The notes: generated by a model from the letters alone, not told the origin. Shown: positions 14,167-48,524, numbered from the stretch's first letter. The stretch: 51,077 bases of DNA from Shigella phage ESh4 (ON528718), one strand, 5' to 3'. Program-made: numbers and translations.

Positions 14167-14200
14167 CCGCATTTTTCATTTGTTTAGCTATTTGTGCTGT

Positions 14201-20437: not shown

Positions 20438-20482
20438 GCTTTTTCACCTTTTGTGCTATTTGATTTGTTGAATTATACGGGC

Positions 20483-20508
20483 AAAAAAAAAGCCGCGCAA
20501 CGCGCGAC
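20483..20508 (-). terminator. intrinsic terminator between I and J
   Basis: GC hairpin (GCCGCGCAACGCGCG) followed on minus strand by nine T. Confidence 0.6.
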
Positions 20509-20517
20509 TCTTTTATA

Positions 20518-21114
20518 TTAAGCCTTATCTTCTGCATAACTCCCAGCAGACCAGATAGCTCCGCCGACGGTCCTTTGACCGTATGGCAATGGTATTGGGT
20601 ATCCTGCCGCCGTTGTGTTAACTGCACCGCCAAAAGCGTAAGACGGCTTATTTTCTGCTGATTGGGATGATAACCGCGACCCGCCTTGCTGTGGTGAAAT
20701 CATCTGCATTACGCCACCCAGCACCATAGCGCCACCCATCATGAAAGCAGACGATGCAAAAGCGCCCATCAAAGCAAGTGAGGAGCCGCCAGTGAAAAAT
20801 GCAGTCGCCATAATAACCGCCCCAAGAACAACCTGAAACAACCCGCCAGACTTTGATCCTGTTGGGATGGGGATAATCCTCACTTCCTTTGCGCATTGCC
20901 ACGCTTTTTCATCGTGCTGCCCTACATTATTACCGTCAACAAATACAGCATAACGCATTCGCGATCCTACTTCGCTTTGCATGTAGTCCTTGAATCCTTC
21001 CACCTGCGAAGATAGCGCACGGATTGCTTCAGGGTATGAGTCAACAGCCAGCTTATGAAATACACCAAATCTTCGCCCTAAAGATCCAGATAATTTAATC
21101 GTTTTCAGTGTCAT
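20518..21114 (-). CDS. tail assembly protein I (lambda gpI-like)
   Basis: C-terminal Gly/Ala-rich hydrophobic region typical of gpI; start at ATG 21114 (track M is GTG at 21120). Confidence 0.6.
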   Translation of the reverse strand: MTLKTIKLSGSLGRRFGVFHKLAVDSYPEAIRALSSQVEGFKDYMQSEVGSRMRYAVFVDGNNVGQHDEKAWQCAKEVRIIPIPTGSKSGGLFQVVLGAVIMATAFFTGGSSLALMGAFASSAFMMGGAMVLGGVMQMISPQQGGSRLSSQSAENKPSYAFGGAVNTTAAGYPIPLPYGQRTVGGAIWSAGSYAEDKA

Positions 21115-21667
21115 AATCACCTCTACTTTTTCTTAACGCGACGATTGCAGGCGCTATGTACTTTAAAAATTCCTCGTGCGTGTAGTTATGCATTCGCGTT
21201 ACGTTGCAAAGCTGGCAGCAAGTGACGCAATTATCTTTAGTGTGTCCTTTTGTGTTATCTATCCTGTCGAAGCCGTTACATAGTGGATCTATGTATCCGC
21301 AGTATACGCAAGGCTTTACTAGTTCCTTAATGCAGTAATCAACATCCAAATCATTCTCAAGATTCTTTTTTTTATCTATTTTTTGGTAGCCTTTTAGTCT
21401 TAATATTTGCGGATTGTTGATTCTGTATCTTCTGCCGTATTCGCTTTTTTTAGCCTTTCCCTCTGGCGTACTGAGCAATCTTTTGTTGTATGCTCTCTGG
21501 CTTGCAAGATACTTGTCCTTGTTGTCCCCCTTCCATTTCTTTTGCCTGTCGTAGTCGCATGTTTTGCATTTATTCCTATGACCATCGGCGCAAGTCTTCG
21601 CCTTCGGAAACTCGCTTAATTTTTTAACCTCTCCGCAGACGTTGCATTTCTTCTCTACTGTCAACAT
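21095..21667 (-). CDS. HNH endonuclease inserted in tail module
   Basis: Cys pairs (CNVCG...CKTC) and HNH-type core (CVYCG...GFDRIDNTKGHTKDNCVTCCQLCN); overlaps both neighbours. Confidence 0.7.
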   Translation of the reverse strand: MLTVEKKCNVCGEVKKLSEFPKAKTCADGHRNKCKTCDYDRQKKWKGDNKDKYLASQRAYNKRLLSTPEGKAKKSEYGRRYRINNPQILRLKGYQKIDKKKNLENDLDVDYCIKELVKPCVYCGYIDPLCNGFDRIDNTKGHTKDNCVTCCQLCNVTRMHNYTHEEFLKYIAPAIVALRKSRGDYDTEND

Positions 21668-22379: not shown

Positions 22380-23140
22380 CACTGATTTCTCCTTAACAGG
22401 CTTGCTACTGGCGCACCGCCAAAATCAAGCTGCTGATCTGCACCAAAACGAAGTTTGCACGCTGTTACAGTTCCGGCGCAAAAGTCTTGAGATGGATCGG
22501 TTACAGGATTGTTGTCTTTGTCAAACATTCGCGATCCATTGTATCCGCAACCCTTTCCGCTTCGATACCATCCACGCTGCGCCCAATAACAAACGCTTTG
22601 AGTTATTCGCGGAGGAATCATTATTCCATCCATATCATAAGGCGATGTCAGATCAAACTTTGCCATCATTCTATTGTAATGGCTTGGGCGCTCAATGTAA
22701 TAAACCAGCTTTCTTGAAGCGCCATCTTTAATGCTGCCATCTTTCCCCATTAATTCCGCTGGCGTGATCCAGATTGTAACCTTAGCTTGCATCATGCCGT
22801 TAAAGTTACGAATCATCGCACTCACCTGGCTATCAAGGTTTGATAGTATCAATTGTGGCTTATCAGCCTTTCCGTTGCTTGTGAAGTTGATTCCAGATAT
22901 TCCGAACGGGCGCGCGCCGTAAACCTCACCACGGAATGTAATCTCTTTTGGCGGAAGAACTCCAGTTTCTCGCGCCTGCAATAATTCTTCCGCAGTGTAT
23001 GAGATGTTCTCATTGTGTATGCGGTAAATGTTTGCGCCAAACTTTGTGCCGTCAATTTCAATTAGCGTGATAATATCGCCAGGGTAAAGGCTTTGCAGAC
23101 AATTTTCAAGATCCGCGCGACCTGTTGTTTCATTAGCCAT
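22379..23140 (-). CDS. minor tail protein L
   Basis: Position between M and K; ATG at 23140 with AAGGAGGTG RBS (track start 23173). Confidence 0.75.
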   Translation of the reverse strand: MANETTGRADLENCLQSLYPGDIITLIEIDGTKFGANIYRIHNENISYTAEELLQARETGVLPPKEITFRGEVYGARPFGISGINFTSNGKADKPQLILSNLDSQVSAMIRNFNGMMQAKVTIWITPAELMGKDGSIKDGASRKLVYYIERPSHYNRMMAKFDLTSPYDMDGIMIPPRITQSVCYWAQRGWYRSGKGCGYNGSRMFDKDNNPVTDPSQDFCAGTVTACKLRFGADQQLDFGGAPVASLLRRNQ

Positions 23141-23171
23141 AATTGCACCTCCTTTCGTGCATTGTATCATC

Positions 23172-23198
23172 AATAAAAAAGCCGCACAAAGGCGGCTT
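23172..23198 (-). terminator. hairpin-Trun attenuator between M and L
   Basis: AAGCCGC...GCGGCTT followed on minus strand by TTTTATT. Confidence 0.45.
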
Positions 23199-23558: not shown

Positions 23559-26227
23559 CCCCGCTTAGACATAACAAATTCGTAAACTTCCCCACCCTGC
23601 GTACATGAACGCTTAATCATATCAGTGAAAATCATTTTTACGCCAGTCTCCAACCCTTTCGGATCGCTTCCGTTGTTAATATCAACGCTGATCCCGCCAA
23701 TATTAAGATTTGTTGCTCCAGATGAAACTCCGCCGCCAGTGTATGAAGTGCCGCCAACAACGCCTCCATTTGCATAACCGCGCATCATTTTGTAAAGATT
23801 TCCAACTCCGATCCGCTTCGTTGCCTCCTTCGTCATGACAAACTCGCCTTTATGGACAACACCTGCTGGCTCATACTTCCCACCATCGCCAGTGTATCCA
23901 CCAGTTGCAAATCCAACATTTTTAAGAAGGCTTCCAATCGTCCAAGTGTCACCGCCAGTCGCACCAGATATGGCATTAAAGATAACCATCTTTGTTATCA
24001 TCTGGATAATCATTTGGATGATTGACGTTGCGAAGCTCTTAAAGTTTGCCTTGCCTGTTGCAAGGAATGTAGCCATTTGGTTGGTTAGACCGTTGAGCGC
24101 CTCGCTTGCAATATCTTGCACGTTGCCGTACATATCCATTGCATCTTGTCCGTAAACCTCCCATGCGTTTTTTGCTCCTGCAATCCAGTTATTTCTTAGC
24201 TGATCCTCAGTGGCGTAATACTCCTTCAGCTTTGCTTCCATCTGCTGATAAATTTCATCGTCGATACTACCGCCGCCAGCAACATAATCAGTTCGCAACT
24301 TCTTCAACTCAAGCTCTCGCTGGATTTGCAGATCTGTAGCTCCAGACTGTCGCAAGTTCATAGCGTCAATAGCATCCGATGTTTGCTGAATGAACTTTAG
24401 CCCTTCCTGATATTGCTTGTTCTTTCTTTGTTGCAAAACAATCTGATCGCCTATCTCGGCCTTTTCTTTTGCCATAGCAAGAACTGTTTTTTGCTCGTTT
24501 AGTAACGCCTGTTCCGCTTTTGTTAGCTTACGTTTGCTTTGCGCTTCCTCTAGGATCTGGATCTGCTTTTCAATACTCCACAAAGATTGCCTCTGGCGTG
24601 AAATAACATCATTTACAGTTCGGTGCTCTTTCAGAGTTTCAAGTTGCGCCTTGAGAACATATAGCTCCTTATCAAGCTGCTCTGTTGGTGCTTTTACAAC
24701 TCCACCAACTTTTTCCTTTTGCTGCTGCGCCTTCTTCGCCTCTTCAAGCTCTTTTCGCCTGAACTCCACGTTCTCAGCCGCTCGTTTTTTCAAATCTTCG
24801 TCTGCTGTCCTTGCTACGTTCTTCTGATCCTCTATGGCTTTGTTTAAAGCCTCTTGCGCCGCTCGAACTCTGTTTAAGGAAAGGTTTTCTCTGTCGATGC
24901 GTGCTGCTCGTTCCGCCATATCCCTATTCGCATCTTTTACGATCTTTCCTATATCCTCATAGGTGTTCTTCGCAAATTGCAACATAGGATTTACATAACC
25001 AAGCTCTTTCCCCAACAGCCCGCCGGACGGTGAAGCATAATCACGTTTTGCTTTTAAGACCGCATACCATGAATCGCCAAGCTCAAGAACTTTGTTTTTG
25101 TGATCAGCAATTTCATTGTTAAGACTTACAAAACTTGATGCGTTTTTGTATTCGTTTACTTTTGCCTTTGCTTCGTCATAGGTAAATCCAACATCGACGA
25201 GTTTTTGTATAGCCTCGCTTGCTCCATCCTTAGTGCTTATATAAGCCTTTGCGATATTGTCGGCGCTCTCTCCTGTCTTGTCAGATAGCGCCTGAATTCC
25301 AGTTGCGATCCGCTCTGCAAACTCACCTGAAAGACCTGTTGCCTCCTGAACGGTTTTTGTGATCTCCTTCAGTTGTGCATTTGTTTTGTATGCATTATAT
25401 GCAGCATAACCAAGAGCACCAGTCAGCGCCGTCATTCCTACACTTAAAGGCGTGACAAATGTCATTAGCGCTTTAAACGTATTAGCAACACCGCCGAATG
25501 AGTCCTTGATTTGCCCCCCTTGCTGTATTGCGATCATCCATACTGGCATACCTGAAGCGAGAGAAGTAACAACGTCAGTGATTTGCATTGGCAATTGCGC
25601 CATTGCTTGCTTGTACTGCCCCATAGAAACGCCAAGTTTTGAGGCTTGTTTTTCCTGCTCCTTCATTTTTGCAATAAATGGCGCTGCCTCAGCACTAACT
25701 CCAAGTTGTGCGGCTCTCATTTCTACAAGCTCTGATTTTGTTTTTTCCGCTGCGTCAGCTTGCGCCTGCAATGCCGCAATAAACTTTCTTGCCTCAGCCT
25801 CTGCCCTTGCCTTGTTTTTTGCTTCCTCAAGCGCCGCGCGACCTTCTTCAGTTAGCGCCTTTTTAGTTGCGATCAGTTTGTTTTGCTGCGTCTCAAGAAT
25901 TGATCCTAACTCAAAGAATGTATCATCCGGCACAATTCCTTTTTTCCAAAGCGCATCAAGCTGTGTTGCTGCCTGGCGCAACTTATCCATTTTGCTTGCT
26001 GTCGGATCTATTGCCGACTGAATTGCTTTAAATTCCTGTTTCTGCTTCGCCAATTCCTCAGCCAATTGTTTGGCTCTTTGCCTTGCAACAACCTCTGAAT
26101 CAACAAAGCTCTCAACGCTTCCCTTTGCGTCGTCGTTTGCCTTTTTGAATTGCTGCAAAGATTTTACAGCATTGTTGAGTTGAGATACATCAACCCCAAG
26201 CGTCAATCCTGCGTATTGTTCTGACAT
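23555..26227 (-). CDS. tail tape measure protein
   Basis: 890 aa, long Ala/Lys/Glu/Gln coiled-coil region, C-terminal Gly-rich segment; GGAGGA RBS. Confidence 0.85.
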   Translation of the reverse strand: MSEQYAGLTLGVDVSQLNNAVKSLQQFKKANDDAKGSVESFVDSEVVARQRAKQLAEELAKQKQEFKAIQSAIDPTASKMDKLRQAATQLDALWKKGIVPDDTFFELGSILETQQNKLIATKKALTEEGRAALEEAKNKARAEAEARKFIAALQAQADAAEKTKSELVEMRAAQLGVSAEAAPFIAKMKEQEKQASKLGVSMGQYKQAMAQLPMQITDVVTSLASGMPVWMIAIQQGGQIKDSFGGVANTFKALMTFVTPLSVGMTALTGALGYAAYNAYKTNAQLKEITKTVQEATGLSGEFAERIATGIQALSDKTGESADNIAKAYISTKDGASEAIQKLVDVGFTYDEAKAKVNEYKNASSFVSLNNEIADHKNKVLELGDSWYAVLKAKRDYASPSGGLLGKELGYVNPMLQFAKNTYEDIGKIVKDANRDMAERAARIDRENLSLNRVRAAQEALNKAIEDQKNVARTADEDLKKRAAENVEFRRKELEEAKKAQQQKEKVGGVVKAPTEQLDKELYVLKAQLETLKEHRTVNDVISRQRQSLWSIEKQIQILEEAQSKRKLTKAEQALLNEQKTVLAMAKEKAEIGDQIVLQQRKNKQYQEGLKFIQQTSDAIDAMNLRQSGATDLQIQRELELKKLRTDYVAGGGSIDDEIYQQMEAKLKEYYATEDQLRNNWIAGAKNAWEVYGQDAMDMYGNVQDIASEALNGLTNQMATFLATGKANFKSFATSIIQMIIQMITKMVIFNAISGATGGDTWTIGSLLKNVGFATGGYTGDGGKYEPAGVVHKGEFVMTKEATKRIGVGNLYKMMRGYANGGVVGGTSYTGGGVSSGATNLNIGGISVDINNGSDPKGLETGVKMIFTDMIKRSCTQGGEVYEFVMSKRG

Positions 26228-26244: not shown

Positions 26245-26268
26245 ATAAAAAAGCGCCCGTAGGCGCTT
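26245..26268 (-). terminator. hairpin-Trun attenuator upstream of tape measure gene
   Basis: GCGCC-TACG-GGCGC followed on minus strand by TTTTTTATT, then RBS. Confidence 0.45.
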
Positions 26269-26895
26269 ATTTTGAATGCATCATTTCAAGTGCTTTTTGC
26301 TCCATGATTCGCAAGTCGTTTAGCGCCATCTCGCGATCCTCAACCTTGTAAATCTCAAAAAGCATAGGCAAGACATTATAATCAAATCCGTAAGCGCCAC
26401 CGCCTGAACATCTCCATTGTGTTTGCATTGCGCAAAATATATCCCATGATTGCATCATGCTTTCATCAAATATAACCTCTGGCGGATCTTCTCCTTCATA
26501 GTCTGCCCTTGTAAGGCCAACAGCCTCAAGCTCTGCATCTGTCGGCGGTTTCTGATAAAACAGGTAAACCGCCCTTTTTAGTTTTTTACTCGCTGCCCCG
26601 CAAGCGCTTTCATGTATGCGCTAGTTAATCCGATTGCTGTCGCTGGGTAGTAATCAAGAAGCTGTTTAATATTTTCTTCGTTAAATTCATCATCAAGATT
26701 CCAACCGGAAGCAAGGAAGGTGATCATTTCAACATCGCTCATCGGGGTGTCGGACGTGTAGCGTTCGTGAATCTCACTTGTTTTTCGGTGGCGAACTGTG
26801 AAGATAATTGTTTGATCTTCTCCGTTAGGCATTGCAAATTTCACTGGTAATTTAAAGTCAGGAAGCGGCCCAAGAGTTAATTTCATTTTTGACAT
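26267..26895 (-). CDS. tail assembly chaperone GT fusion via -1 programmed frameshift
   Basis: Slippery heptamer A_AAA_AAC (plus coords 26581-26587) overlapping G stop; -1 frame is open and runs into track ORF 26267-26458. Confidence 0.55.
26578..26895 (-). CDS. tail assembly chaperone G (zero-frame product)
   Basis: 105-aa ORF between major tail and tape measure genes; AAGGAGAAAGAA RBS. Confidence 0.7.
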   Translation of the reverse strand: MSKMKLTLGPLPDFKLPVKFAMPNGEDQTIIFTVRHRKTSEIHERYTSDTPMSDVEMITFLASGWNLDDEFNEENIKQLLDYYPATAIGLTSAYMKALAGQRVKN

Positions 26896-26906: not shown

Positions 26907-26952
26907 TGATAGCACTTTTTGTTAAAAGAATTGATTATGAATCGTGTATCAT
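26907..26952 (+). promoter_or_regulatory. conserved promoter-like unit in inverted (antisense) orientation
   Basis: Plus strand ATAGCACTTTTTGTTAAAAG + 22 bp + TATCAT, pointing rightward into the leftward tail operon. Confidence 0.4.
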
Positions 26953-26965
26953 GATTGTACAGTAA

Positions 26966-26989
26966 CAAAAAAAGGGGCGCAACGCCCCT
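26966..26989 (-). terminator. intrinsic terminator after major tail protein gene
   Basis: GGGGCG-CAAC-GCCCC followed on minus strand by TTTTTTT. Confidence 0.7.
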
Positions 26990-26994
26990 TGTGA

Positions 26995-28494: not shown

Positions 28495-28858
28495 GCACAG
28501 AAATCCTTCTCAAAACAGGCCGATAAGCAACAGTGACATTGGTTTGCCTGATTGGCCTTGCTTCAACTACAACATATAATTCACCATCAACATCAATATG
28601 ATACCCGCTCTTAATTTCAACTTTATTGTTAAAAACTCCCAACTTATCTGTTACTCGTATTGTCTCGCCGTCAACCTCTCGGACTTTTGGGGATCGAATT
28701 AAACCCTTAATCATTACACTAATCTCTGGCTTTTCTACTTCTTCGCCTCCGATGATTTCAACGCTTCCACGCTGCGTTATGCACTTAAACTCACCGTTGC
28801 TATCACTAAATAAGTTAATTCCTTCGGTTGCCATTCTTGCGATCTCGTTATAGTTCAT
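28487..28858 (-). CDS. head-tail adaptor / head closure protein
   Basis: Position and size (123 aa) in neck module. Confidence 0.45.
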
Positions 28859-29271: not shown

Positions 29272-29318
29272 TTTGTTTCCTCCAGATATGACAAAGGGCG
29301 CTTATAGCGCCCTCTTTA

Positions 29319-29604: not shown

Positions 29605-29634
29605 ATAAAAAAGGGAATCCAGTTAAGGATTCCC
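29605..29634 (-). terminator. intrinsic terminator after major capsid gene
   Basis: GGGGAATCC-TTAACT-GGATTCCC followed on minus strand by TTTTTTATTGG and RBS. Confidence 0.7.
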
Positions 29635-29647
29635 CAATGTTATACGA

Positions 29648-30622
29648 TTAACCTGATTTTTTCAAGCCAGTAATAAGCACTAGCGTAAACGGACGGTAAA
29701 TCGTCAGGCCAGTACATTTTGAAGTGCACGGAACTTTGAAATGCAGATCTTTTGGCTGCGCCGGAAGCATGTTAAATGCTTCTGGAATCTCGATCGACAT
29801 ATTCATTGGGTCTTTCTCATATACCAGGCAACCTTTAGTTCCAGCGCCATCAATATCCTCAAGCTCTGCGATTGAGTCGATGGTGATTCCGCTGTTTTGT
29901 TTCTGGAAGTATTCCAGATAACTTTCAGTGGTGTTTTCCATTCGAACGGAAAGAACCTTGCGCATAGACGGCGGAATCAGGATGTTGGTTGCTCGGTGCT
30001 GACCATTGGTGATGGTCTGAATGGTTTCAATAGCCTTTTCCAGTTCATCAGATGCTGCCTGCGGGAACTTAGTGTTTTCATCAGCACTTAACCAGCCAGT
30101 TGACACGATCTTTGTCAGGTTAGGGTGTTCAAACACCGAAAGAATCTTATGCGGCTTTGAACCCTTAAACACCAGGCGGTTAACCTCCTGATCATGAGCG
30201 TTTTGCGCTGCGTTTGCCTTGCGAGTGGAAAGGCTCTTACCAGTGCGCTGACCAGCCTTGATTTCGTCAATGGAGATCAAGAACGCGTTACCCAGGCGGA
30301 ATACTTTACCGAATTCGCTAGACATCAGCGCGTCAACGGTCGGCAGGTCGTCGGTGTAATCAGCGATAATTTTTGCGTAACCAACTTTGTCAAACATCTG
30401 ATATTCAAAAGTCTTATCAGTATCAGAAAGCTCATTAGTTACAGGGAATACACGAAGCGCTGAACCTGCCGGATATTCTTTCTCGTAAGCATTAGAGCGA
30501 ATCTTATGCAGTTCTTGAGCGGCCCAAATACCCATATCGGACGCATCACCTTTAACGCCGCGAGTAGCCAGATAGCTAGAAACAATATCCGCATCTAGCT
30601 GATCAAATTTTTCTTTTTCCAT
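29648..30622 (-). CDS. major capsid protein
   Basis: 324 aa, flanked by strong promoter-like sequence upstream and terminator downstream; T1-type capsid gene position. Confidence 0.75.
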   Translation of the reverse strand: MEKEKFDQLDADIVSSYLATRGVKGDASDMGIWAAQELHKIRSNAYEKEYPAGSALRVFPVTNELSDTDKTFEYQMFDKVGYAKIIADYTDDLPTVDALMSSEFGKVFRLGNAFLISIDEIKAGQRTGKSLSTRKANAAQNAHDQEVNRLVFKGSKPHKILSVFEHPNLTKIVSTGWLSADENTKFPQAASDELEKAIETIQTITNGQHRATNILIPPSMRKVLSVRMENTTESYLEYFQKQNSGITIDSIAELEDIDGAGTKGCLVYEKDPMNMSIEIPEAFNMLPAQPKDLHFKVPCTSKCTGLTIYRPFTLVLITGLKKSG

Positions 30623-30665
30623 TTTCTTCCTCCATATATAAAGGTCGTTAGTATGTAACGGACCA

Positions 30666-30693
30666 ATGATAGCATTTTTTGTTAAACGTGCAA
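30666..30693 (-). promoter_or_regulatory. sigma70-like promoter for major capsid gene (TTGCAC-16-TATCAT)
   Basis: Built from an inverted copy of the conserved element (plus 30669-30687). Confidence 0.45.
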
Positions 30694-30705
30694 CATAATT
30701 TTGTG

Positions 30706-31140
30706 TTATGGGTCAATGCTTACCCCGACAATATATGAATCATGATCAACCTTTACATGTTCGCCAGTAAATATCCAACCAATCAGCAAGTCGCCTTCAC
30801 TGTATGCCACATCTCCATCTTGCGTTACAAATACTTTATCTCCATATTCTGGCGCTTCGCTCTCAGAAGTTAAGCACCAAACATTACCACGACTAACCAC
30901 ATTAACTGGATCGCCCTCCTCATATATGCACGAGTCCGGCGGCCTTACTGCCACTCCAATAACCAGATCACCATTAACACTGACTATTTTATATCCGCTT
31001 GATATATATGATAACCTTACAATCTTACCTGGTGAAATAAACTCGTCTCCACATACAAAAGAACCATTAATCACCATTATTGAAGAATCAACCATGCATC
31101 CTGGCGACTCAGCGCCAACAATGACTGAATAATCACTCAT
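30706..31140 (-). CDS. capsid-associated protein, paralog A (decoration-like)
   Basis: Shares motifs with 31186-31698 (GVAV..., E.G...NV...G.VW.L....AP.[FY]G); same module. Confidence 0.5.
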   Translation of the reverse strand: MSDYSVIVGAESPGCMVDSSIMVINGSFVCGDEFISPGKIVRLSYISSGYKIVSVNGDLVIGVAVRPPDSCIYEEGDPVNVVSRGNVWCLTSESEAPEYGDKVFVTQDGDVAYSEGDLLIGWIFTGEHVKVDHDSYIVGVSIDP

Positions 31141-31154
31141 GAGAACTCCAAATA

Positions 31155-31178
31155 TAAAAAAGGCGCTCAGTGAGCGCC
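31155..31178 (-). terminator. intrinsic terminator
   Basis: GGCGCTC-ACT-GAGCGCC followed on minus strand by TTTTTTATATTTGGAG. Confidence 0.65.
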
Positions 31179-31185
31179 ATATTTA

Positions 31186-31698
31186 TTAACCTGCTGAAAC
31201 TGCCGGAACTTTTTGCACCTGAACCTCTACCAGCTTCAAGTCTTGAAACTTGGTGAAATCACCAGTCGCGATCCAGTTTGTTTCGATAGTGCCAGACGTG
31301 GTATCAACCTGACCATCATCAGACAGTTTGATTGTAGTGCCGAACGCTGGCGCGGAAGCGTCTTTAGCCAGCATCCAAACACGCCCTTCAGTCATTACGT
31401 TGATTCCGCCGCCAGATTCATAAATCATTCGACCGTCAGACGAAGTTGTCTGAAAGTGAGATCGAATTGCAACGCCGTAAGCCTTGCCGCTTGCCGCCAT
31501 CGGCTTAATTAGCTTATTGCCCATAGCGTCAACTCCGCCATGCTGGACCGCCACACCAACAAAAACAGACTGATTCTGATTGCCTGCCGCATTCTCAAGA
31601 ACACAAGCGCCATCAATATTATAAGCTGAAGTGTCAGAAACCTGACCAGGTAACGCACGAGACATTACAGCAAAATAACTTGCTCCAATTGTAGCCAT
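31186..31698 (-). CDS. capsid-associated protein, paralog B (decoration-like)
   Basis: Paralogous to 30706-31140; followed by terminator. Confidence 0.5.
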   Translation of the reverse strand: MATIGASYFAVMSRALPGQVSDTSAYNIDGACVLENAAGNQNQSVFVGVAVQHGGVDAMGNKLIKPMAASGKAYGVAIRSHFQTTSSDGRMIYESGGGINVMTEGRVWMLAKDASAPAFGTTIKLSDDGQVDTTSGTIETNWIATGDFTKFQDLKLVEVQVQKVPAVSAG

Positions 31699-31710
31699 GT
31701 TTATTTCTCC

Positions 31711-32823
31711 TTATTTAAGTTTTTTCAAACGCGCAGTCGGATCAAGGGAGTCGGTTTTTTCACTCTTGCCAGATTCGAAAGAGTCGCCCTTAACAGATTT
31801 ACGCTGCGCCGCCATTTTATCAGACTGCTTCGCAAGGTCAAAAGCTGTTTCAATATATGCATCGGCTTTTTCTGAAATATCAGCGCCAGTGACTTCTTTG
31901 ACGTAAGCAACCTTAATCGCTTTAGCGTCCAAGCCGTCACACTTGATGCCAATTTCAGTTGCATCTGCAACCAGCTTGGCGTGTTCTTCTGCGTCAGTCT
32001 TCGCCTTCTTAACAGCTTCTGCAATCTGCGCCGGAATGCCATCGACTTTAGTTTTCAGGGCGTCGCGCTCTGCCTCAAGGCCATCAGCTTTTTCGGTTGC
32101 AGCTTTTGCATCTGCCTTTAACGCCTCAATATGATCAGCAACGGCCTTTGGAACATCAAATTCTACCGCGCCATCAAGTTTAATTTTTACTGTCATTTCC
32201 TCATCTCCTTTGTCATTTAGAACCTCGTCACTATACGGAAAATCTTGTTCACTATCAAGATTTAATTTGGCAATGCCAGCACGACCACGAAAGACAAGTG
32301 CAATGTGATTAACACGGATATTCGTCTGAATGGCGTCAAATTTAACCCAATCAGGAGAATCTGGATTCCAGTCTTCCTTGAGATCTTCCTCAAACAAGTA
32401 ATCACCGGTTTTATTATTACCCCAGCCTGGCTTGTCAATATCAACCGATGTGTAACCAACTGAAATTTCCGCCGTGTCTTTCTTTTTTGCGCTCTCAATT
32501 GCTCGCTTTGAGTAAATGCTTAACGGAACTTCAACGCCAATCCCATTTGGAACACCAGCGCCAGCGCATGAACCAACAACAACCTGATCCGCATTATCTG
32601 GCGTCACTGTGACGTGACCGATAGTGATTGGCTTGCCTGCGAACGTAGCAAGCGAATCAGCCTTAAACACTTCTGACGCTGGTCGGAACTCTCGTCTGAT
32701 TCCATACGGCGTGCGGTACTCCTGCAAGCCAATTCGCGCCACAATTGGGCGATCCACTAAAAATCCATTATCATCAAAATGCGCCTTAACTTGGACGCTA
32801 TCAAATCTTTGTTTTGCCTTCAT
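31711..32823 (-). CDS. head scaffolding protein (possibly with N-terminal protease-like domain)
   Basis: C-terminal half Ala/Lys/Glu/Asp-rich coiled coil; position between minor head and capsid genes. Confidence 0.5.
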   Translation of the reverse strand: MKAKQRFDSVQVKAHFDDNGFLVDRPIVARIGLQEYRTPYGIRREFRPASEVFKADSLATFAGKPITIGHVTVTPDNADQVVVGSCAGAGVPNGIGVEVPLSIYSKRAIESAKKKDTAEISVGYTSVDIDKPGWGNNKTGDYLFEEDLKEDWNPDSPDWVKFDAIQTNIRVNHIALVFRGRAGIAKLNLDSEQDFPYSDEVLNDKGDEEMTVKIKLDGAVEFDVPKAVADHIEALKADAKAATEKADGLEAERDALKTKVDGIPAQIAEAVKKAKTDAEEHAKLVADATEIGIKCDGLDAKAIKVAYVKEVTGADISEKADAYIETAFDLAKQSDKMAAQRKSVKGDSFESGKSEKTDSLDPTARLKKLK

Positions 32824-32826
32824 TAA

Positions 32827-33591
32827 TTACTCTCCTTTATTATTCCAATCTGGAATCGCCCAGCAACGGCAACCCCACGGCTCACCAGGGAAATCATGAA
32901 TTGCATCAAGCGCTATTCTTTTACCTTCCCATAATACATGCTGCAATCGCTCTCTATCATCTAACATCCCATGCCAGAAATAATGAGTCACCTTAGCATC
33001 ATAAAGGCGCTGGCGCATCAGGCGACTATTCCACGCGCCGATAATGTTTTCTGATCTAGTTTTACCCCAGGAGCTATAAACAGCAAATCTCTTTTCTGCA
33101 AGATCATTAACCTGTTTATCATTGCTTCCGCGAAAGTTTGCATTGCGAATGTTTGTTGACCAGTCAGAAACAATGTTTGTGAATAACTTCCTTAGCGATG
33201 ATTCTGTAAGGCCGTGCCATTGACCGTAAAGCGTCTGATACCACTCCTCGTTAGCGTTAGCGCCAACCGCGATCAAAACAATTACCGCCGTATTATTCTT
33301 TCCGCCAGTTGACTTGGCAACATTTATGAACTGCTTCGCATTGAATTTATAAATGGTCAACGCGATTGCAGGAAGAGTTGAAACAATGCCAGCTATAAGG
33401 TCAGTTGCCAGACTGTTAATTTCATCTTCTGCGCTGTTGATCTCATTATCTGTTGCGTCAAACTTCATCGCCTTTGTTCGCTTGCGCATGAGAACCACAA
33501 GATCTCTAATTGCCTCCTGAATTGAGCGGCTAAATTGCCGCTCGCTTGCTTCAGGAAAGCGCCATTGTTTAACGACGCCCTTCACTTTCAT
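32827..33591 (-). CDS. minor head protein (Mu F-like / SPP1 gp7-like)
   Basis: WHGMLDDRERLQH...CRCW motif region; directly downstream of portal. Confidence 0.65.
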   Translation of the reverse strand: MKVKGVVKQWRFPEASERQFSRSIQEAIRDLVVLMRKRTKAMKFDATDNEINSAEDEINSLATDLIAGIVSTLPAIALTIYKFNAKQFINVAKSTGGKNNTAVIVLIAVGANANEEWYQTLYGQWHGLTESSLRKLFTNIVSDWSTNIRNANFRGSNDKQVNDLAEKRFAVYSSWGKTRSENIIGAWNSRLMRQRLYDAKVTHYFWHGMLDDRERLQHVLWEGKRIALDAIHDFPGEPWGCRCWAIPDWNNKGE

Positions 33592-34871
33592 TACTCATTC
33601 CCCTGTGTGCCTGGCTCCGGCTCAGTTGGCTCCGGCAGCTTGATTTTATTAGTGTCCTTTAGTTTAACGCTTGGGGCGATTGCTCGCAACGTGTCTCGCG
33701 CTTCTTCAACATCAAGGAACTGACCATCAATAGCCTTGCTGATTGAGTCGATATTCTTATTCAGAATTTCAGCCTGATCTTTATCGCTAGGCACGCTCAA
33801 AGGTGAAAACTCAATGCTCCACTCCTGCTCACTAATGATGAACGGCAATAGAAATTCAAGGATGGGCTTGTAATCCTCGACGCGTTTTCGCTCAATAAGT
33901 TTATAGAATGTTTCAAGCGCCGTGTTTTGGCTTGCGCTAACGCCGCCAACGTTTTTATTTTTCAGGATGATTTCATGAATACCTGAAAGGGAAACGATGC
34001 GATCCATTTTCTTTTCCAGAAAAGAATCAACGCCGCTAATGTCAGAATTAAGAACATCATATTCCTCATCCTCAGCATCAATACCAATTGCTTTTCCAAC
34101 ACCGCCCTCGTCGTCAACCTGCGCAAGTCTCAGGCGTGCCGCGCTAACACCTTCCTCATCATCGCACAAGTCAGCGAGTCCTTTAGCTTTCCATACTGCC
34201 TGTTGCTTCCGCCGCAATAATTGCGTTGCCAATGTTTCACAATAATTATAATCAACAATAGCCTCAACAAGTCTCTTGTTAAGAACTGACTCACCCCAGC
34301 CATCATTGCTGCGTCGCTTTGCGTTAGGTATCCGCTCACCGTCAATAATGCAAACGCGCGTATAGTGTACTTGGTATTCCGGCAAGTCTCCGCCTGGCGT
34401 TACAGTGTAAAGCACTGGCTCACCATAGCGAACCTTGCGGGGATTAGTTTCGCGCGCTTCAACGCGAATCTGATAACGATCATAAACGCGCACATCTTCC
34501 AGCATGGCACCAGGCTTTACAGGTGATTTGAGCGCTCGCCCATCCTGAACAAGAGCAATGATTGCAGATCCACCAAACAAACGCGACCAACAAAGCGCAT
34601 CAATAATTTTTGCATTGAGTCGCTTCTCATCCCACAAAGAACGGAATGCTGCCTCGTCTGCCACGCCGTCAACAGTAAAGCCAGGGGAAACCATTTCCTC
34701 TGGTACTACGTCAATAATCCTTTTTGCCAGACCATCTTTTTCGTAAAAGTCAGCGAGTGTCTTGTATGGCATTGATTGCATGTAGAATGGTTGCTCTACT
34801 CGCGATTTGCAATTCTCGCCTTTAAAGATCTCATTATAGCCGTCAGCCTTAACGATTCGTGATTTACTCAT
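33591..34871 (-). CDS. portal protein
   Basis: 426 aa, acidic C-terminal region, position directly after TerL. Confidence 0.75.
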   Translation of the reverse strand: MSKSRIVKADGYNEIFKGENCKSRVEQPFYMQSMPYKTLADFYEKDGLAKRIIDVVPEEMVSPGFTVDGVADEAAFRSLWDEKRLNAKIIDALCWSRLFGGSAIIALVQDGRALKSPVKPGAMLEDVRVYDRYQIRVEARETNPRKVRYGEPVLYTVTPGGDLPEYQVHYTRVCIIDGERIPNAKRRSNDGWGESVLNKRLVEAIVDYNYCETLATQLLRRKQQAVWKAKGLADLCDDEEGVSAARLRLAQVDDEGGVGKAIGIDAEDEEYDVLNSDISGVDSFLEKKMDRIVSLSGIHEIILKNKNVGGVSASQNTALETFYKLIERKRVEDYKPILEFLLPFIISEQEWSIEFSPLSVPSDKDQAEILNKNIDSISKAIDGQFLDVEEARDTLRAIAPSVKLKDTNKIKLPEPTEPEPGTQGNE

Positions 34872-34884
34872 TATCTTTCCTCCA

Positions 34885-34909
34885 ATAAAAAAGGCTGGAT
34901 TTACCAGCC
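34885..34909 (-). terminator. hairpin-Trun attenuator between TerL and portal
   Basis: GGCTGG-TAAAT-CCAGCC followed on minus strand by TTTTTTATTGGAGG. Confidence 0.6.
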
Positions 34910-34939
34910 TTTGATTATATATTGGTTTGTCGATTCGTG

Positions 34940-36508
34940 CTATTTGTTCCGCAAACCTGCCAATTTTTTCATTCTTCCTACCGGATCATCTGCCATGTTC
35001 ATTTCAATGTTAACAGCATCAATGATGTTATCAACAATATCATCATGAGGATGGCTATCATCGAATGTAAACGCCGCAACTTCAGCGAGAATCTCAGCCA
35101 GCATAGGATGAGATTCTGGAAGTGCCACGCGTCCGGCGCGCATTACTGGTGCTGCGTCCATTGCGCGAGTAACCTTGTCTTTATCTCGCTGAACTGGATT
35201 GATCTTGATCATGATTTTTTTCGCTGCGCTCTGAATCAAGCCAGTGCCAGATGACTTGTCTTCAACATGAATCCTTCGCAACGTTCCGCATTCTTTATTG
35301 CGCTTCCAGCACTGATTAACGAACGCAACAAAATTCGTCTCAAGGTCCGGTGCTTCCCATTTTCCGCGAACGCCATCAATGAAGTAGACACGATCTTTAT
35401 ACATCCCCCAATAACAGATCACGGAATAGTCGTTAAGCTCACCTGTTTTCTGCGCGGTATCAACCGTGATAAATGTATATTCAAAGCGATCCGGTTTTGG
35501 TAGTGTGCATTTCTCGCTGCTGCCGTAATACTGAAACCACTCTGTTTTAAACACGTTGCCGCCAAGCGCAACAGGCTGTTGCTGATACTGACTAGCGAAC
35601 GTGTACGGATCAGCATTTCGAAGTGCAAGTAATTCCTCCGCGCTTTCCTTAGCAGGCCAGAATGAATAATGAGCAACTCCATCAATCATCACTGGCTTAC
35701 TGGACAAAACATCGCGATCAAACTCAGGCTTTAACCAATCAGGAAGCGTTTCGCGATATTCCTTAGTAACTAGCGCCGGAATACTGACCACCTTAAACTG
35801 GATGCCGCCCATGCCGCCGTTTGTCATGAACCATGTTGAATCATTGACGTGTAGCCGTTGCTGGACCATTACGATTGGCGTTGTGTCCTTCATTCTACGC
35901 GATCGCACCGTGTTCTTTAGGCGCATGTGTCCGGCTTCGCGCTTCACCTTAGAAAGCATATCATCCGGTTTGTCTGGATCATCAAGAACCAGCATACCAG
36001 TAAATCCATCGTCCATGTAGCCGCCACGCAGACCAGTAACCTGACCACCGATAGAGCGCGAGTTAACTTGCAATTTAACCTTGCCACCATCGGTTACAAT
36101 TAAATCCTTTGCGCTCGCCTTCGCCAGTTTTCCAGGCCATAGCTCCTGCCATTCTGGAGAACCAATAATCTCTTTGATGCGGTTGCTATTCTGCTGGACA
36201 AGGCCATCACTAAACGAAAGATTAAGATTTCGCACCTTCTTACTTTTCAATGACGCATAAGGTGACATGTGGATCGAGAATATCTCTGTTTTACCGCTGC
36301 CTGGCGTTATGTTGAAAATTACGTTTTGTGACTCGCCTTTGATGATTTTTTCAACTTCGCTGCATAGGTAGCTGAAATGCCAGTTTCCTAAGAATTTCTG
36401 ACCTTGCAATAATTGAAACCAAATGCGGATCATCTTTTCGAATGAATATTCGCTCATTTCCTTAACGGCGCGTTTCTGCGCCGCTGTTAAGTCTTCCCAA
36501 ATCAGCAT
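34940..36508 (-). CDS. terL: terminase large subunit
   Basis: Walker A-like ITPGSGKT, Walker B-like LVLDDPD, C-terminal nuclease-like acidic residues; 522 aa. Confidence 0.85.
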   Translation of the reverse strand: MLIWEDLTAAQKRAVKEMSEYSFEKMIRIWFQLLQGQKFLGNWHFSYLCSEVEKIIKGESQNVIFNITPGSGKTEIFSIHMSPYASLKSKKVRNLNLSFSDGLVQQNSNRIKEIIGSPEWQELWPGKLAKASAKDLIVTDGGKVKLQVNSRSIGGQVTGLRGGYMDDGFTGMLVLDDPDKPDDMLSKVKREAGHMRLKNTVRSRRMKDTTPIVMVQQRLHVNDSTWFMTNGGMGGIQFKVVSIPALVTKEYRETLPDWLKPEFDRDVLSSKPVMIDGVAHYSFWPAKESAEELLALRNADPYTFASQYQQQPVALGGNVFKTEWFQYYGSSEKCTLPKPDRFEYTFITVDTAQKTGELNDYSVICYWGMYKDRVYFIDGVRGKWEAPDLETNFVAFVNQCWKRNKECGTLRRIHVEDKSSGTGLIQSAAKKIMIKINPVQRDKDKVTRAMDAAPVMRAGRVALPESHPMLAEILAEVAAFTFDDSHPHDDIVDNIIDAVNIEMNMADDPVGRMKKLAGLRNK

Positions 36509-37029
36509 TATATCTTCTCCAGAATGTCAATTACCGCCTCTTTGACTTCCTCCGCCGTTACAGCGTCAACGCTTGCGCTTGTATTATTCTCAATGGTAAC
36601 GGTAGCTGGCTTTTCAATGCCGATCTCTTTACCAATGAATCCGGCGTTAACAATATTGTTTGCAGCAAGCTGGAATTTTTGCTCGTAAACAACGCCGTCG
36701 ATAAAGTCCATAACCTCGCTGAATCCTGGCTCACGTCGCCATTTTTCAAGTACGGAAGCAGAAAGGCCAGCGAATAATCGGAATCCGTTTAAGGTGAACA
36801 CGCGCGGCTTGTAAATCTTGCTTTCGTATACGTCACCCTGAAAGGATGCCGTTTCCGCAGCCTGTATATGATTTTCCTCGGCCCACGTAAAGTAACGAAC
36901 AGCAAGATCAAATACCTGTTCCGGCGTGTACTTGTGCGCCTTTGTCATTTTTGCAATATCGCCATATTGCTTATTATATAGTTTTTTAAAATTGCAAGCC
37001 TTTACTGCTGGCTCAACGTTTTTAGCCAT
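36508..37029 (-). CDS. terminase small subunit (candidate)
   Basis: Gene immediately upstream of TerL; ATG at 37029 with AAGGAGGG RBS (track ORF extends to 37200). Confidence 0.55.
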   Translation of the reverse strand: MAKNVEPAVKACNFKKLYNKQYGDIAKMTKAHKYTPEQVFDLAVRYFTWAEENHIQAAETASFQGDVYESKIYKPRVFTLNGFRLFAGLSASVLEKWRREPGFSEVMDFIDGVVYEQKFQLAANNIVNAGFIGKEIGIEKPATVTIENNTSASVDAVTAEEVKEAVIDILEKI

Positions 37030-37058
37030 AATTCGCCCTCCTTTATAACAAAGCCTCA

Positions 37059-37064
37059 TTATAG
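37059..37064 (-). promoter_or_regulatory. -10-like TATAAT upstream of terminase genes
   Basis: TATAAT on minus strand between terminator 37079-37102 and TerS RBS; no clear -35. Confidence 0.3.
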
Positions 37065-37078
37065 ACAAATTGCAGACA

Positions 37079-37102
37079 ATAAAAAACCCGCCATTTGGCG
37101 GG
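37079..37102 (-). terminator. intrinsic terminator separating early region from packaging genes
   Basis: CCCGCC-AAAT-GGCGGG followed on minus strand by TTTTTTATT. Confidence 0.65.
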
Positions 37103-37109
37103 TAGTTTG

Positions 37110-37721: not shown

Positions 37722-37867
37722 ATATTCACCTATAAAAAAGGCGATACGTCTTACGGTAAAAACCTGCATATCGCCGTTGTTGCGTGGCAACCGCGCCACC
37801 CGTTCGGCACTAACGCCGCTCTTATGTAAACACCGAAGATGTTAACCAATCAGGAAATCGTTGTCAA

Positions 37868-39157: not shown

Positions 39158-39202
39158 ACTTTAACAAATGCCCTCGCGGAAGTTTTAACAAAAAGTGCTA
39201 TT
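39158..39202 (-). promoter_or_regulatory. conserved promoter-like unit
   Basis: Sense AATAGCACTTTTTGTTAAAAC + 22 bp + TAAAGT; upstream gene stop TAA abuts element. Confidence 0.45.
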
Positions 39203-40472: not shown

Positions 40473-40502
40473 GTTCAAGTCCTTTCGTTGATTGGTGTTT
40501 GC

Positions 40503-40548
40503 ATTATAGCGAGGCATTGCGCCCCGCTTTTAGCAATTCGTGCTATTT
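40503..40548 (-). promoter_or_regulatory. conserved promoter-like unit (variant)
   Basis: Sense AAATAGCACGAATTGCTAAAAG + 22 bp + TATAAT; kinase stop TAG inside element. Confidence 0.55.
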
Positions 40549-41804: not shown

Positions 41805-41851
41805 ACTATACCGAAAGCCCGATAATCTGTTTTTGCAAAAAGTGCTATTTT
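41805..41851 (-). promoter_or_regulatory. conserved promoter-like unit (variant TTGCAA)
   Basis: Sense AAAATAGCACTTTTTGCAAAAAC + 22 bp + TATAGT; upstream gene stop TAG inside element. Confidence 0.5.
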
Positions 41852-42814: not shown

Positions 42815-42859
42815 ATTATACCTGGCCCCGCATTTGAGTTTTAACAATTCGTGCTATTT
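42815..42859 (-). promoter_or_regulatory. conserved promoter-like unit (variant)
   Basis: Sense AAATAGCACGAATTGTTAAAAC + 21 bp + TATAAT with GGCC...GGCC dyad around -10. Confidence 0.55.
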
Positions 42860-43803: not shown

Positions 43804-43849
43804 ATTATGCCTGGTTATCGTTTTTGAGTTTTAACAAAAAATGCTATTT
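43804..43849 (-). promoter_or_regulatory. conserved promoter-like unit
   Basis: Sense AAATAGCATTTTTTGTTAAAAC + 22 bp + CATAAT. Confidence 0.55.
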
Positions 43850-44234: not shown

Positions 44235-44267
44235 TTTTGTTTTCCTCAATCTCGTTTCGATGAGGCT

Positions 44268-44313
44268 ATTATGCCAGGCTTTGCACCTGGCGTTTTAACA
44301 AAAAGTGCTATTT
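44268..44313 (-). promoter_or_regulatory. conserved promoter-like unit with CCAGG/CCTGG hairpin
   Basis: Sense AAATAGCACTTTTTGTTAAAAC-GCCAGGTGCAAAGCCTGG-CATAAT, near-identical to unit 48478-48524. Confidence 0.55.
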
Positions 44314-45631: not shown

Positions 45632-45677
45632 AAATAGCACTTTTTGTTAAAACTGAATCCGCCTGATCGGGTACATT
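45632..45677 (+). promoter_or_regulatory. conserved promoter-like unit (first rightward gene)
   Basis: AAATAGCACTTTTTGTTAAAAC + 22 bp + TACATT, 40 nt upstream of ORF 45717. Confidence 0.5.
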
Positions 45678-46511: not shown

Positions 46512-46555
46512 ATAGCATTTTTTGTTAAAACCGATGCGCCTATGATTGGTATATT
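46510..46555 (+). promoter_or_regulatory. conserved promoter-like unit
   Basis: AAATAGCATTTTTTGTTAAAAC + 22 bp + TATATT; -10 lies in loop of CGATGCGC...GCGCATCG dyad. Confidence 0.55.
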
Positions 46556-47080: not shown

Positions 47081-47124
47081 AATAGCACGAATTGCTAAAC
47101 AATATTTCTCAAACCTGGTATAGT
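47081..47124 (+). promoter_or_regulatory. conserved promoter-like unit (variant)
   Basis: AATAGCACGAATTGCTAAAC + 21 bp + TATAGT. Confidence 0.5.
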
Positions 47125-47773: not shown

Positions 47774-48484
47774 ATGTATAAAGGTTTAATTTTCTCTTTG
47801 TTTGATGGATCTGGTAAAGCCGTTAAAGATTGGGCCGACGCTGGATATAAGTGCATTTGCTTTAATGCTGACGGTGGCGATCATGGTGATTACCAGTCAG
47901 TGCGCATACAGCATGAGAATATCGAATACGTTAACTTCTGGATTGATGAAAGATTTTACCACCGCGCGCGCTGGGAGGAATGGGGTATTCCTGACTTTAT
48001 TATGGCATTTCCTCCTTGCACACAATTAGCAAATAGCGGATCTCGTCATTGGGCTAAAAAGCGCGTGGAAAATCCTAACTTCCAGGATGAGGCCGCAGAC
48101 ACTTGCAAAATTGCGGCGCATATCGCTGATTATTTCGGTGTTCCGTACATGATAGAGAATCCTGTAGGAAAGTTATCAACGTTATGGCGGAAGCCTGATT
48201 ATACTTTCCATCCGTGCGATTATGCTGGCTATCTGCCGGAAGATGATAAGCATCCCGACTTCCCTGATATTATTCCGGCGCGGGATCGCTACTTTAAGAA
48301 AACATGCCTTTGGACTGGAAACGGATTTGTTATTCCTCCGCGCGCAACAATCCTTCCTAAAGAGGGCGACAAGGATAATCCTGGCTGGGCCAAAACTGGC
48401 GGAAAATCATCTCGCACAAAGATGATTCGCTCCCTCACACCGCGCGGTTTTGCTCGCGCCGTCTTTGAAGTAAACGCAAAATAG
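47774..48484 (+). CDS. DNA cytosine-5 methyltransferase-like protein (compact)
   Basis: Motif I-like LFDGSG, motif IV-like FPPCTQLANSG (Pro-Cys), motif VI-like MIENPVG; 236 aa; stop TAG inside conserved element. Confidence 0.5.
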   Translation: MYKGLIFSLFDGSGKAVKDWADAGYKCICFNADGGDHGDYQSVRIQHENIEYVNFWIDERFYHRARWEEWGIPDFIMAFPPCTQLANSGSRHWAKKRVENPNFQDEAADTCKIAAHIADYFGVPYMIENPVGKLSTLWRKPDYTFHPCDYAGYLPEDDKHPDFPDIIPARDRYFKKTCLWTGNGFVIPPRATILPKEGDKDNPGWAKTGGKSSRTKMIRSLTPRGFARAVFEVNAK

Positions 48485-48524
48485 CACTTTTTGTTAAAAG
48501 CCAGGTGTAAAAGCCTGGCATAAT
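48478..48524 (+). promoter_or_regulatory. conserved promoter-like unit with CCAGG/CCTGG hairpin
   Basis: AAATAGCACTTTTTGTTAAAAG-CCAGGTGTAAAAGCCTGG-CATAAT; 31 nt upstream of ORF 48556. Confidence 0.55.

Follow-up and report, generated by a model that had tools for sequence, protein, structure and literature searches.

Predicted intrinsic terminators, some of them overlapping promoter motifs, in the late region of the T1-like Shigella phage ESh4 and across Drexlerviridae

The late genes of Shigella phage ESh4 (ON528718) are transcribed leftward and are separated at ten junctions by GC-rich hairpins, nearly all of which run straight into a tract of Ts. The whole stretch of DNA analysed, 51,077 nucleotides in length, is referred to here as the window. 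These elements are probably intrinsic terminators for the host RNA polymerase (RNAP), which would split the late region of T1-like phages into conserved modules. Two kinds of site can be distinguished: class A sites, predicted to be leaky, in which the T-run leads into the ribosome-binding site (RBS) of the next gene, and class B sites, in which the terminator is fused to a predicted promoter. ESh4 is a virulent T1-like siphovirus of ~51 kb (Drexlerviridae, Tempevirinae, Hanrivervirus). The 9-kb stretch around the terminator series is 96-97% identical to SFP17 (Shigella), grams and haarsle (Escherichia) and pSf-1, and this match to Hanrivervirus phages rules out a lambdoid prophage.

All ten hairpins lie in intergenic spacers on the minus strand, which is the coding strand of the late genes, and have stems of 7-13 bp with a predicted free energy (dG) of -10.4 to -16.5 kcal/mol. 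Seven of them had been listed in a first-pass annotation of the sequence, and all seven exist on the strand and at most 1-3 nt from the place given there, with perfect GC-rich stems of 7-9 bp (dG -10.4 to -15.0 kcal/mol) and, behind the stem, a T5-7 tract that in most cases reads TTTT(T)ATT. The sites after g90, after the I-like gene and after J are further members of the series. A T5-T9 tract abuts the stem at 9/10 sites; the tract after g90 is weak in ESh4 and is T5 in T1. Measured from the stop codon of the gene before them, stems start at -2 to +27 nt, and at most sites at -2 to +12 nt. Under strict criteria, which demanded a perfect stem of 5 bp or longer, a dG of -10 or below and at least 6 T in 8 (region 16900-37200), the coding strand holds 9 sites, against 0.025 +/- 0.16 expected from 40 dinucleotide-preserving shuffles, and the only 2 strict hits on the plus strand are reverse complements of palindromes already counted. 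All sites were recovered by both of two independent scans. In the list below, SD stands for the Shine-Dalgarno sequence, MCP for the major capsid protein, TMP for the tape-measure protein and ORF for open reading frame.

37079-37103, minus strand: t(pre-TerS), class B; hairpin ACCCGCCAAATGGCGGGT (37103-37086, -13.3 kcal/mol) and TTTTTTATT; closes the leftward early gene block before the packaging genes
34883-34912, minus strand: t(TerL), class A; hairpin AAAGGCTGGTAAATCCAGCCTTT (34912-34890, -13.5 kcal/mol) and TTTATT, passing straight into GGAGG and the portal ATG (34871)
31155-31178, minus strand: t(g170), class A in ESh4; hairpin GGCGCTCACTGAGCGCC (31178-31162, -11.6 kcal/mol) and TTTTTTATATTT, then GGAG and the g144 ATG (31140)
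29605-29635, minus strand: t(MCP), class A; hairpin GGGGAATCCTTAACTGGATTCCCT (29635-29612, -15.0 kcal/mol) and TTTTTATT, then GGAGG and the g90 ATG (29591)
29294-29314, minus strand: t(g90), class A; hairpin GAGGGCGCTATAAGCGCCCTT and T-run TGTCATATC, poor in ESh4, then GGAGG and the g138 ATG (29271)
26954-26990, minus strand: t(V) with promoter P_V, class B; hairpin AAGGGGCGTTGCGCCCCTT (26990-26972, -12.8 kcal/mol) and T7
26245-26268, minus strand: t(pre-TMP), class A; hairpin AAGCGCCTACGGGCGCTT (26268-26251, -10.4 kcal/mol), overlapping the TAA stop of the gpT-like ORF, then TTTTATTACC, GGAGG and the TMP ATG (26227)
23161-23198, minus strand: t(M) with promoter P_M, class B; hairpin AAGCCGCCTTTGTGCGGCTT (23198-23179, -10.4 kcal/mol) and TTTTATT
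20472-20514, minus strand: t(I) with promoter P_I, class B; hairpin AAAAGAGTCGCGCGTTGCGCGGCTTTTTT (20514-20486)
16950-16978, minus strand: t(J), end of the late block; hairpin AAAGGGGGCTATTGCCCCCTTT (16978-16957) and TTTAAT

The positions of these elements are conserved throughout the family. Conservation was assessed in 91 genomes or loci, made up of ESh4, 10 GenBank genomes that represent four subfamilies or more and 80 IMG/VR loci gathered with a major-tail-protein alignment, and a junction was scored as carrying a terminator when a hairpin with a T-run occurred within 130 nt after the orthologous late gene. A terminator follows the MCP gene in 87/87 genomes (38 distinct stems), the gene for the major tail protein (V) in 89/89, the chaperone T ORF that precedes TMP in 88/90, the I-like gene in 83/84, the M-like gene in 82/87, g170 in 78/81, g90 in 54/61 and TerL in 51/79; it follows J in 23/27 of the loci that extend so far, and the pre-TerS terminator is found in 21/21 genomes with a detectable upstream ORF. 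At translationally coupled junctions, by comparison, a terminator was scored in 1/87 (g123), 1/85 (L), 4/75 (MuF) and, at a dG of -9 or below, 0/80 (TMP) cases. Each terminator-bearing junction shows 22-38 different stem sequences, and the flanking proteins are merely 35-80% identical. In the alignment of the pre-TMP helix, 96.4% of cells are paired and 5/7 pairs have changed on both sides; none of 500 shuffles matched the observed pairing, and sliding the partner by 1-3 columns gave 40-62% pairing. Fixed positions, turnover of the stems and covariation therefore point to selection on the hairpin and its T-run, as expected of functional terminators. Sequence, statistics, positional conservation and covariation agree in supporting the assignment of these elements as intrinsic terminators, as the first-pass annotation had proposed. 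Chance palindromes, or dispersed REP-like or mobile repeats with no role in transcription, would account for the palindromic nature of the elements and for nothing else; such an origin is extremely improbable given 9 sites where 0.025 are expected, their common orientation, their intergenic placement and their retention in ~90 genomes with covarying stems. A dispersed-repeat or mobile-element origin was rejected for the further reason that the stems are unlike between sites: a repeat search linked the sites only through the T-run, the SD and promoter motifs.

It had also been claimed that each hairpin is followed directly by an RBS and ATG. This describes the sites after TerL, g170 and MCP and before TMP, where the hairpin ends 18-23 nt from the ATG, and loosely the site after M (38 nt, with the -10-like TGATACAAT between), but not those after V and before TerS, where the ATG is 76 and 56 nt away, respectively, and both spacers resemble promoters. 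Class A comprises the sites after TerL, g170, MCP and g90 and before TMP. An SD lies at most 15 nt from the hairpin, with no -10-like hexamer between the two, in 36/36 post-TerL, 41/41 post-g90 and 47/47 pre-TMP sequences, and the same arrangement is found in most post-g170 (36/58) and post-MCP (39/63) sequences. Essential genes lie behind these sites, namely those for the portal, the head-tail connectors, the major tail protein and the tape measure. Because a promoter would not fit there and essential genes follow, substantial read-through would be required at class A sites, which by necessity would then be leaky terminators.

Class B comprises the sites before TerS and after V, M and I. A conserved TAnAAT, often in the form (C/G)TGTAnAAT, follows the T-run, and after V, M and I a -35-like TTGCGC or TTGTGC occupies the hairpin loop and 3' arm, 17 nt before the -10. 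These promoters are predicted, at the level of motifs, to be of the sigma70 type:

37058-37063, minus strand: candidate TerS/TerL promoter, -10-like TATAAT, called from motif conservation only; it has no good -35, the T-run filling that position
26982-26954, minus strand: P_V, -35 TTGCGC (26982-26977), 17-nt spacer, -10 TACAAT (26959-26954)
23189-23161, minus strand: P_M, -35 TTGTGC (23189-23184), 17-nt spacer, extended -10 TGA-TACAAT (23166-23161); an SD and the L-like ATG (23140) follow
20500-20472, minus strand: P_I, -35 TTGCGC (20500-20495), 17-nt spacer, -10 TATAAT (20477-20472); the J-like ATG (20437) follows

In all of the distinct pre-TerS sequences (21/21), the hairpin is separated from the SD by a stretch that holds a -10 scoring at least 5/6. 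After I, a -10 is present in 53/55 distinct sequences, and in all 53 the -35 position falls within the hairpin; after V it is present in 46/62 distinct sequences (39 with TTG at -35), and after M in 41/56, the -35 position again falling within the hairpin. The loop contains TTG in 27/32 distinct post-V hairpins, and rarely does so at class A sites (2/20, 3/24 and 4/22). Independently, a repeat search placed all three of the composite units in a single 37-nt family.

The MCP gene has a predicted sigma70 promoter of its own, followed by a second hairpin in the 5' untranslated region (UTR):

30666-30693, minus strand: P_MCP, -35 TTGCAC (30693-30688), 16-nt spacer, extended -10 TGC-TATCAT (30671-30666)
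30643-30664, minus strand: MCP 5'-UTR hairpin GGTCCGTTACATACTAACGACC, then TTTATATAT (T-rich) and GGAGG

An A-rich, UP-like tract lies upstream of P_MCP. The pattern TTGnnn-N16-TAnnnT recurs upstream of MCP in 77/78 distinct sequences, and 64 of these have the TGn of an extended -10; for instance, T1 has TTGACG-N16-TATTAT, Webervirus TTGACG/TATTCT and Braunvirinae TTGCGT/TATAAT. The stems of the 5'-UTR hairpin covary among genera (in T1, AAGCCGTGA...TCACGGCTT with TTTTTTATT), and the T-run is not conserved; this hairpin is a candidate 5' stabiliser of the mRNA and/or terminator of read-through from g144. It begins 2 nt past the -10. RNA started locally would lack part of the 5' arm, and read-through RNA from g144 would hold the complete hairpin (in T1 together with a T6 run); on this geometry, the arrangement could terminate read-through transcripts alone. 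With its promoter, 5' hairpin, ORF and terminator, MCP may form a nearly self-contained cassette for high expression. The P_MCP spacer is also the reverse complement of the 19-nt direct repeat of the family, DR (ATAGCACnnnTTGnTAAAA); therefore, any factor that binds DR would occupy P_MCP. An antisense promoter at this reversed DR was considered and rejected, as the antisense -10 is poor (TATGGG) and the sense strand carries the family-wide promoter, to which the reversed DR supplies the spacer and extended -10.

From the presence, statistics, common orientation, positional conservation and covariation of these elements, and from the conservation of the promoter motifs, we infer termination itself, its efficiency, promoter activity and any effect on stoichiometry or mRNA stability. 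Inside modules, a leaky class A stop would step transcription down after products needed in abundance (the decoration-type protein, MCP, and the tail chaperone G/GT ahead of the low-copy tape measure), and its hairpin would leave the upstream mRNA with a protective, stable 3' end. Ribosomes that terminate -2 to +12 nt from a stem could occlude its 5' arm; with such short stop-to-stem distances, the extent of read-through may thus depend on whether the gene before it is being translated. At class B sites, where the hairpin loop would serve as the -35, the 3' arm and T-run as the 17-nt spacer and TAnAAT as the -10, upstream transcription would be halted and the next module restarted at the strength of its own promoter. 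MCP would in addition be driven by its own strong promoter, together with the 5'-UTR hairpin and t(MCP).

The first-pass annotation had envisaged graded attenuation along one long late transcript. In its pure form, this model places a single promoter upstream of TerS and lets serial partial terminators alone set stoichiometry through a monotonic gradient. Class A sites, with no room for a promoter and with essential genes downstream, fit such a scheme, as does the placement of terminators after the abundantly needed MCP, decoration-type and major tail genes, and the need for read-through at class A is the part of the proposal that stands. A single transcript attenuated in series would, however, give TerS/TerL mRNA in excess of portal, portal in excess of MCP and MCP in excess of tail, which is the opposite of the need for MCP; the conserved, predicted internal promoters would resolve this difficulty. 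MCP, behind two such terminators, has a conserved promoter that is predicted to be strong (77/78), -35/-10 pairs overlap the terminators after V, M and I, a -10 follows the pre-TerS terminator, and the published T1 annotation likewise invokes internal promoters. With these promoters, the architecture appears modular, and a gradient along one transcript is quite unlikely to be the whole explanation.

Protection of mRNA 3' ends, which had been offered as the other possible role of the hairpins, is plausible and compatible with termination. As an account that replaces termination, it would make the hairpins mainly post-transcriptional 3' stabilisers (or 5' stabilisers after cleavage) and the T-run an AU-rich enhancer of translation. 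Stem-loops at 3' ends are known to block 3'-5' exonucleases, the T-run adjoins the SD at class A sites, and the MCP 5'-UTR hairpin covaries, its T-run unconserved, at a place where termination would be counter-productive. Against this, the T-run after the stem has been kept across genera even where the RBS is 40-75 nt away (after V, after I and before TerS), which is a signature of termination and not of translation enhancement. RNase III of the T7-type processing pathway acts on imperfect duplexes of ~20 bp or longer with an internal loop; the helices found here are perfect and, at 7-13 bp, too short, and they share no common processing motif. The two roles are not exclusive, and stabilisation as the main function is unlikely.

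The preferred reading, in which host RNAP meets leaky and promoter-fused terminators, has also to be set against antitermination. The terminators could be efficient for unmodified host RNAP, so that the late genes stay silent early in infection, and be overridden late by a phage factor or RNA. In favour of this, some ten terminators fall within 20 kb, and essential genes sit behind those that lack a promoter; the pre-TerS terminator divides co-directional early and late genes; and the MCP promoter is followed, in T1 and some of its relatives, by a terminator-like hairpin with T6. The annotations of T1, TLS and relatives contain no Q- or N-like antiterminator, sigma factor or RNAP, however, and the TLS paper reports no sigma factor or RNAP (PMC11447400). 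An Rfam scan of the whole window found no family above threshold and no put-like or other RNA element, and the multiple conserved internal promoters would make processive antitermination unnecessary. An antitermination gate of this kind is very unlikely. A related proposal treats the terminators as discriminating gates, with the full hairpin forming in transcripts that arrive from upstream and not in those started locally. Placing the -35 in the loop (class B) or the transcription start site inside the 5' arm (MCP 5' UTR) would interleave promoter with hairpin, and class A sites would perhaps be overridden late by phage antitermination or by ribosomes stalled at stop codons -2 to +12 nt from the stems. 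The result would be a temporal switch operated by host RNAP, possibly with late antitermination or ribosome stalling; we consider it improbable.

Several points weigh against the modular reading that we prefer. Termination, leakiness and promoter activity are predictions, and in phiX174 the energy of a hairpin does not predict the efficiency of termination (bioRxiv 10.1101/2020.03.05.979765). The class B -35s match the consensus at 3/6 positions and were called from position and conservation; the -35 of P_MCP in ESh4 (TTGCAC) likewise matches at 3/6. TTG in the loop is less consistent after M (11/28) and after I (15/28) than after V (27/32), and the post-g90 hairpin carries a poor T-run in ESh4. 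The conservation of promoters and terminators was counted over phylogenetically related sequences. Finally, the TerL terminator is kept in just 51/79 genomes, and a step-down before the portal and protease genes is at odds with simple stoichiometry.

The terminators of the T1-like late region are already known, having been annotated in T1 since 2004 and in relatives. The T1 record (NC_005833) carries a 'rho-independent transcriptional termination site' at all of the orthologous junctions, which are the one before TerS and those after TerL, ST49, MCP, ST46, the major tail gene, ST39 (pre-TMP), ST37, ST34 and ST33. Eight of them are listed here with their T1 coordinates and the names of the corresponding ESh4 genes.

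8322-8344: before TerS
10545-10573: TerL
14235-14267: g170
16107-16137: MCP
16445-16470: g90
22793-22816: M
24972-24994: I
28568-28594: J

In G29-2 (MK373798, 97% identical), ARNold terminators are annotated at the same junctions, including those before TerS and after g90, and five of the terminators, the pre-TerS one among them, are annotated in Klebsiella phage Snook (PQ337356). The TLS re-annotation paper restates the 2004 T1 paper of Roberts, Martin and Kropinski in describing terminator-flanked modules ('transcriptons') with sigma70 promoters (PMC11447400). Papers on T1-like genomes give 18-21 terminators per genome (PMC4070988) or 8 (PMC7718038). The terminators reported in T1 and its relatives are in-silico calls, and a literature search for transcriptomic, start-site or Term-seq work on Drexlerviridae or T1 found no transcript 5'- or 3'-end or coverage data.

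Two other strong hairpins with T-runs occur in the window outside the late block. One, at 37740-37775 on the minus strand, lies upstream of the pre-TerS ORFs (dG -13.8, TTTTTTATAG). The other, at 253-275, is present on both strands and looks like a bidirectional terminator between convergent genes near the start of the window.

The gene labels of the first-pass annotation were broadly right, since the tail genes are lambda/N15-like, which is why the names V, M, L and tape measure could be applied; the genome itself is that of a T1-like virulent phage. A PHROG search identified the following neighbouring genes.

31711-32823: head maturation protease
31186-31698: g170, virion structural or decoration-type protein, a paralogue of g144
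30706-31140: g144, virion structural or decoration-type protein, a paralogue of g170
26578-26895: tape-measure chaperone, G part
26267-26458: tape-measure chaperone, T part (gpT-like frameshift-extension ORF)
21095-21667, minus strand: inserted gene of the endonuclease VII/HNH type, 190 aa (PHROG 1035, E = 3e-24)
20518-21120: I-like tail assembly protein

The endonuclease VII/HNH-type ORF sits between the K-like and I-like tail genes and is absent at that position in G29-2, T1 and the other relatives examined; it is therefore likely to be a homing endonuclease insertion. Within the J-like gene (16982-20437), three 33-nt segments at 17535-17765 are spaced exactly 99 nt apart with 64-79% identity, which suggests that the central tail fibre protein contains a 33-aa domain repeated in tandem. 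Twenty-odd GenBank records labelled as phages of Campylobacter jejuni, such as MG065643.1 and MG065673.1 ('Campylobacter phage E6 / A119'), contain an MCP 99% identical to that of ESh4; contamination by T1-like coliphages or mislabelling is the probable cause.

The DR repeat that overlaps P_MCP has 21 copies in the window at up to 3 mismatches, where 3.0 are expected. It has been reported in TLS, where its function was left open (PMC11447400). The following copies lie outside the late block.

Minus strand: 3197-3215, 4217-4235, 6735-6753, 14182-14200, 39183-39201, 40528-40546, 41830-41848, 42839-42857, 43829-43847 and 44293-44311
Plus strand: 15691-15709, 45634-45652, 46512-46530, 47082-47100, 48481-48499 and 49157-49175

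In the early arms, DR is co-oriented with the genes and stands at a fixed 18-19 nt before a -10-like hexamer (CATAAT, TATAAT or TATAGT), with an RBS and ATG ~35-40 nt after that hexamer. The arrangement suggests that early-arm DR is the upstream element of a phage-specific class of promoter. A distance of 22 nt separates its TTGnTA from the -10, which is more than an ordinary -35 allows, and an activator site is therefore suggested. In many DR promoters, the 19-nt spacer between DR and the -10 holds a variable GC-rich inverted repeat (for example, gcccggccttgtgtcgggc, ggcgcgaaggattgcgcc, gccaggtgcaaagcctggc) without a proper T-run (3177-3195, 4197-4214, 40500-40527, 44265-44292 and 48500-48520), which may be either the remnant of a terminator for upstream transcription, overlapped by the promoter, or a structural feature of this class of promoter. 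In the late region, the spacer between V and the chaperone gene contains a perfect DR on the strand opposite to the late genes, with TATCAT 19 nt behind it (26909-26952, plus strand). All lineages with the reversed DR in this spacer keep TAnnnT at N19 (TAGGAT in T1; TAGAGT, TAGCAT or TACAGT in others), and in Rtp and ACG-M12 the DR at this junction is forward-oriented. By its motifs, the V-spacer DR looks like a conserved antisense promoter that points into the major tail gene and faces the sense promoter P_V. Two further DR-like matches, at 34925-34943 shortly upstream of the TerL hairpin and at 20441-20459 before J, were set aside; they have 3 mismatches and no fixed N19 to a -10, and are probably due to chance, as about 3 such matches are expected.

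Leaky terminators that shape the expression of structural genes are textbook phage biology, as in phiX174 and T7 (Tphi). What is gained here is, first, a corrected context, that of a virulent T1-like phage and not a lambdoid late operon, and second, a map across the family in which universal, read-through-requiring and promoter-fused terminators are told apart. Drexlerviridae are common therapy phages and BASEL-type model phages, for which the ten sites and P_MCP provide concrete predictions of transcript ends; compact parts, both terminators and terminator-promoter units, can also be drawn from them.

Among known systems, the late region of lambda (pR'-tR' and Q) is similar in its long co-directional head-tail block, in its tail genes, those of ESh4 being lambda/N15-like, and in having terminators that must be passed for the late genes to be expressed. 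It differs in that lambda depends on just one late promoter together with a dedicated antiterminator, whereas ESh4 has multiple conserved, predicted internal promoters and no antiterminator identified; lambda-like antitermination by Q was accordingly dropped as a model for this T1-like virulent phage. In T7, the phi10 promoter, a 5' stem-loop and a strong RBS precede gene 10, which encodes the MCP, and the leaky Tphi follows it, read-through feeding the later structural genes. The MCP cassette of ESh4 would be functionally like this phi10-gene 10-Tphi unit. However, T7 uses its own RNAP and class III promoters, whereas a T1-like phage would use the host sigma70 RNAP.

By analogy, phiX174 is the best experimentally characterised counterpart. 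There, too, intrinsic terminators follow structural genes in co-directional strings, and read-through yields nested mRNAs and tuned ratios; TJ, TF and TG block just 20-40% of transcription and TH 70% (bioRxiv 10.1101/2020.03.05.979765). phiX174 is, however, a 5.4-kb single-stranded DNA microvirus with three promoters and measured efficiencies, whereas the efficiencies of the T1-like sites are inferred. The closest system is T1 itself, in which ten orthologous junctions match (pre-TerS, post-TerL, post-ST49, post-MCP, post-ST46, post-major tail, pre-TMP, post-ST37, post-ST34 and post-J). The idea of modules flanked by terminators and served by sigma70 promoters is the same, and nothing essential differs. 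Beyond the T1 annotation, the series has here been counted over 91 genomes and split into sites with a direct RBS and sites that overlap a predicted promoter, and the geometry of the -35 in the loop and the universal MCP promoter have been spelled out.

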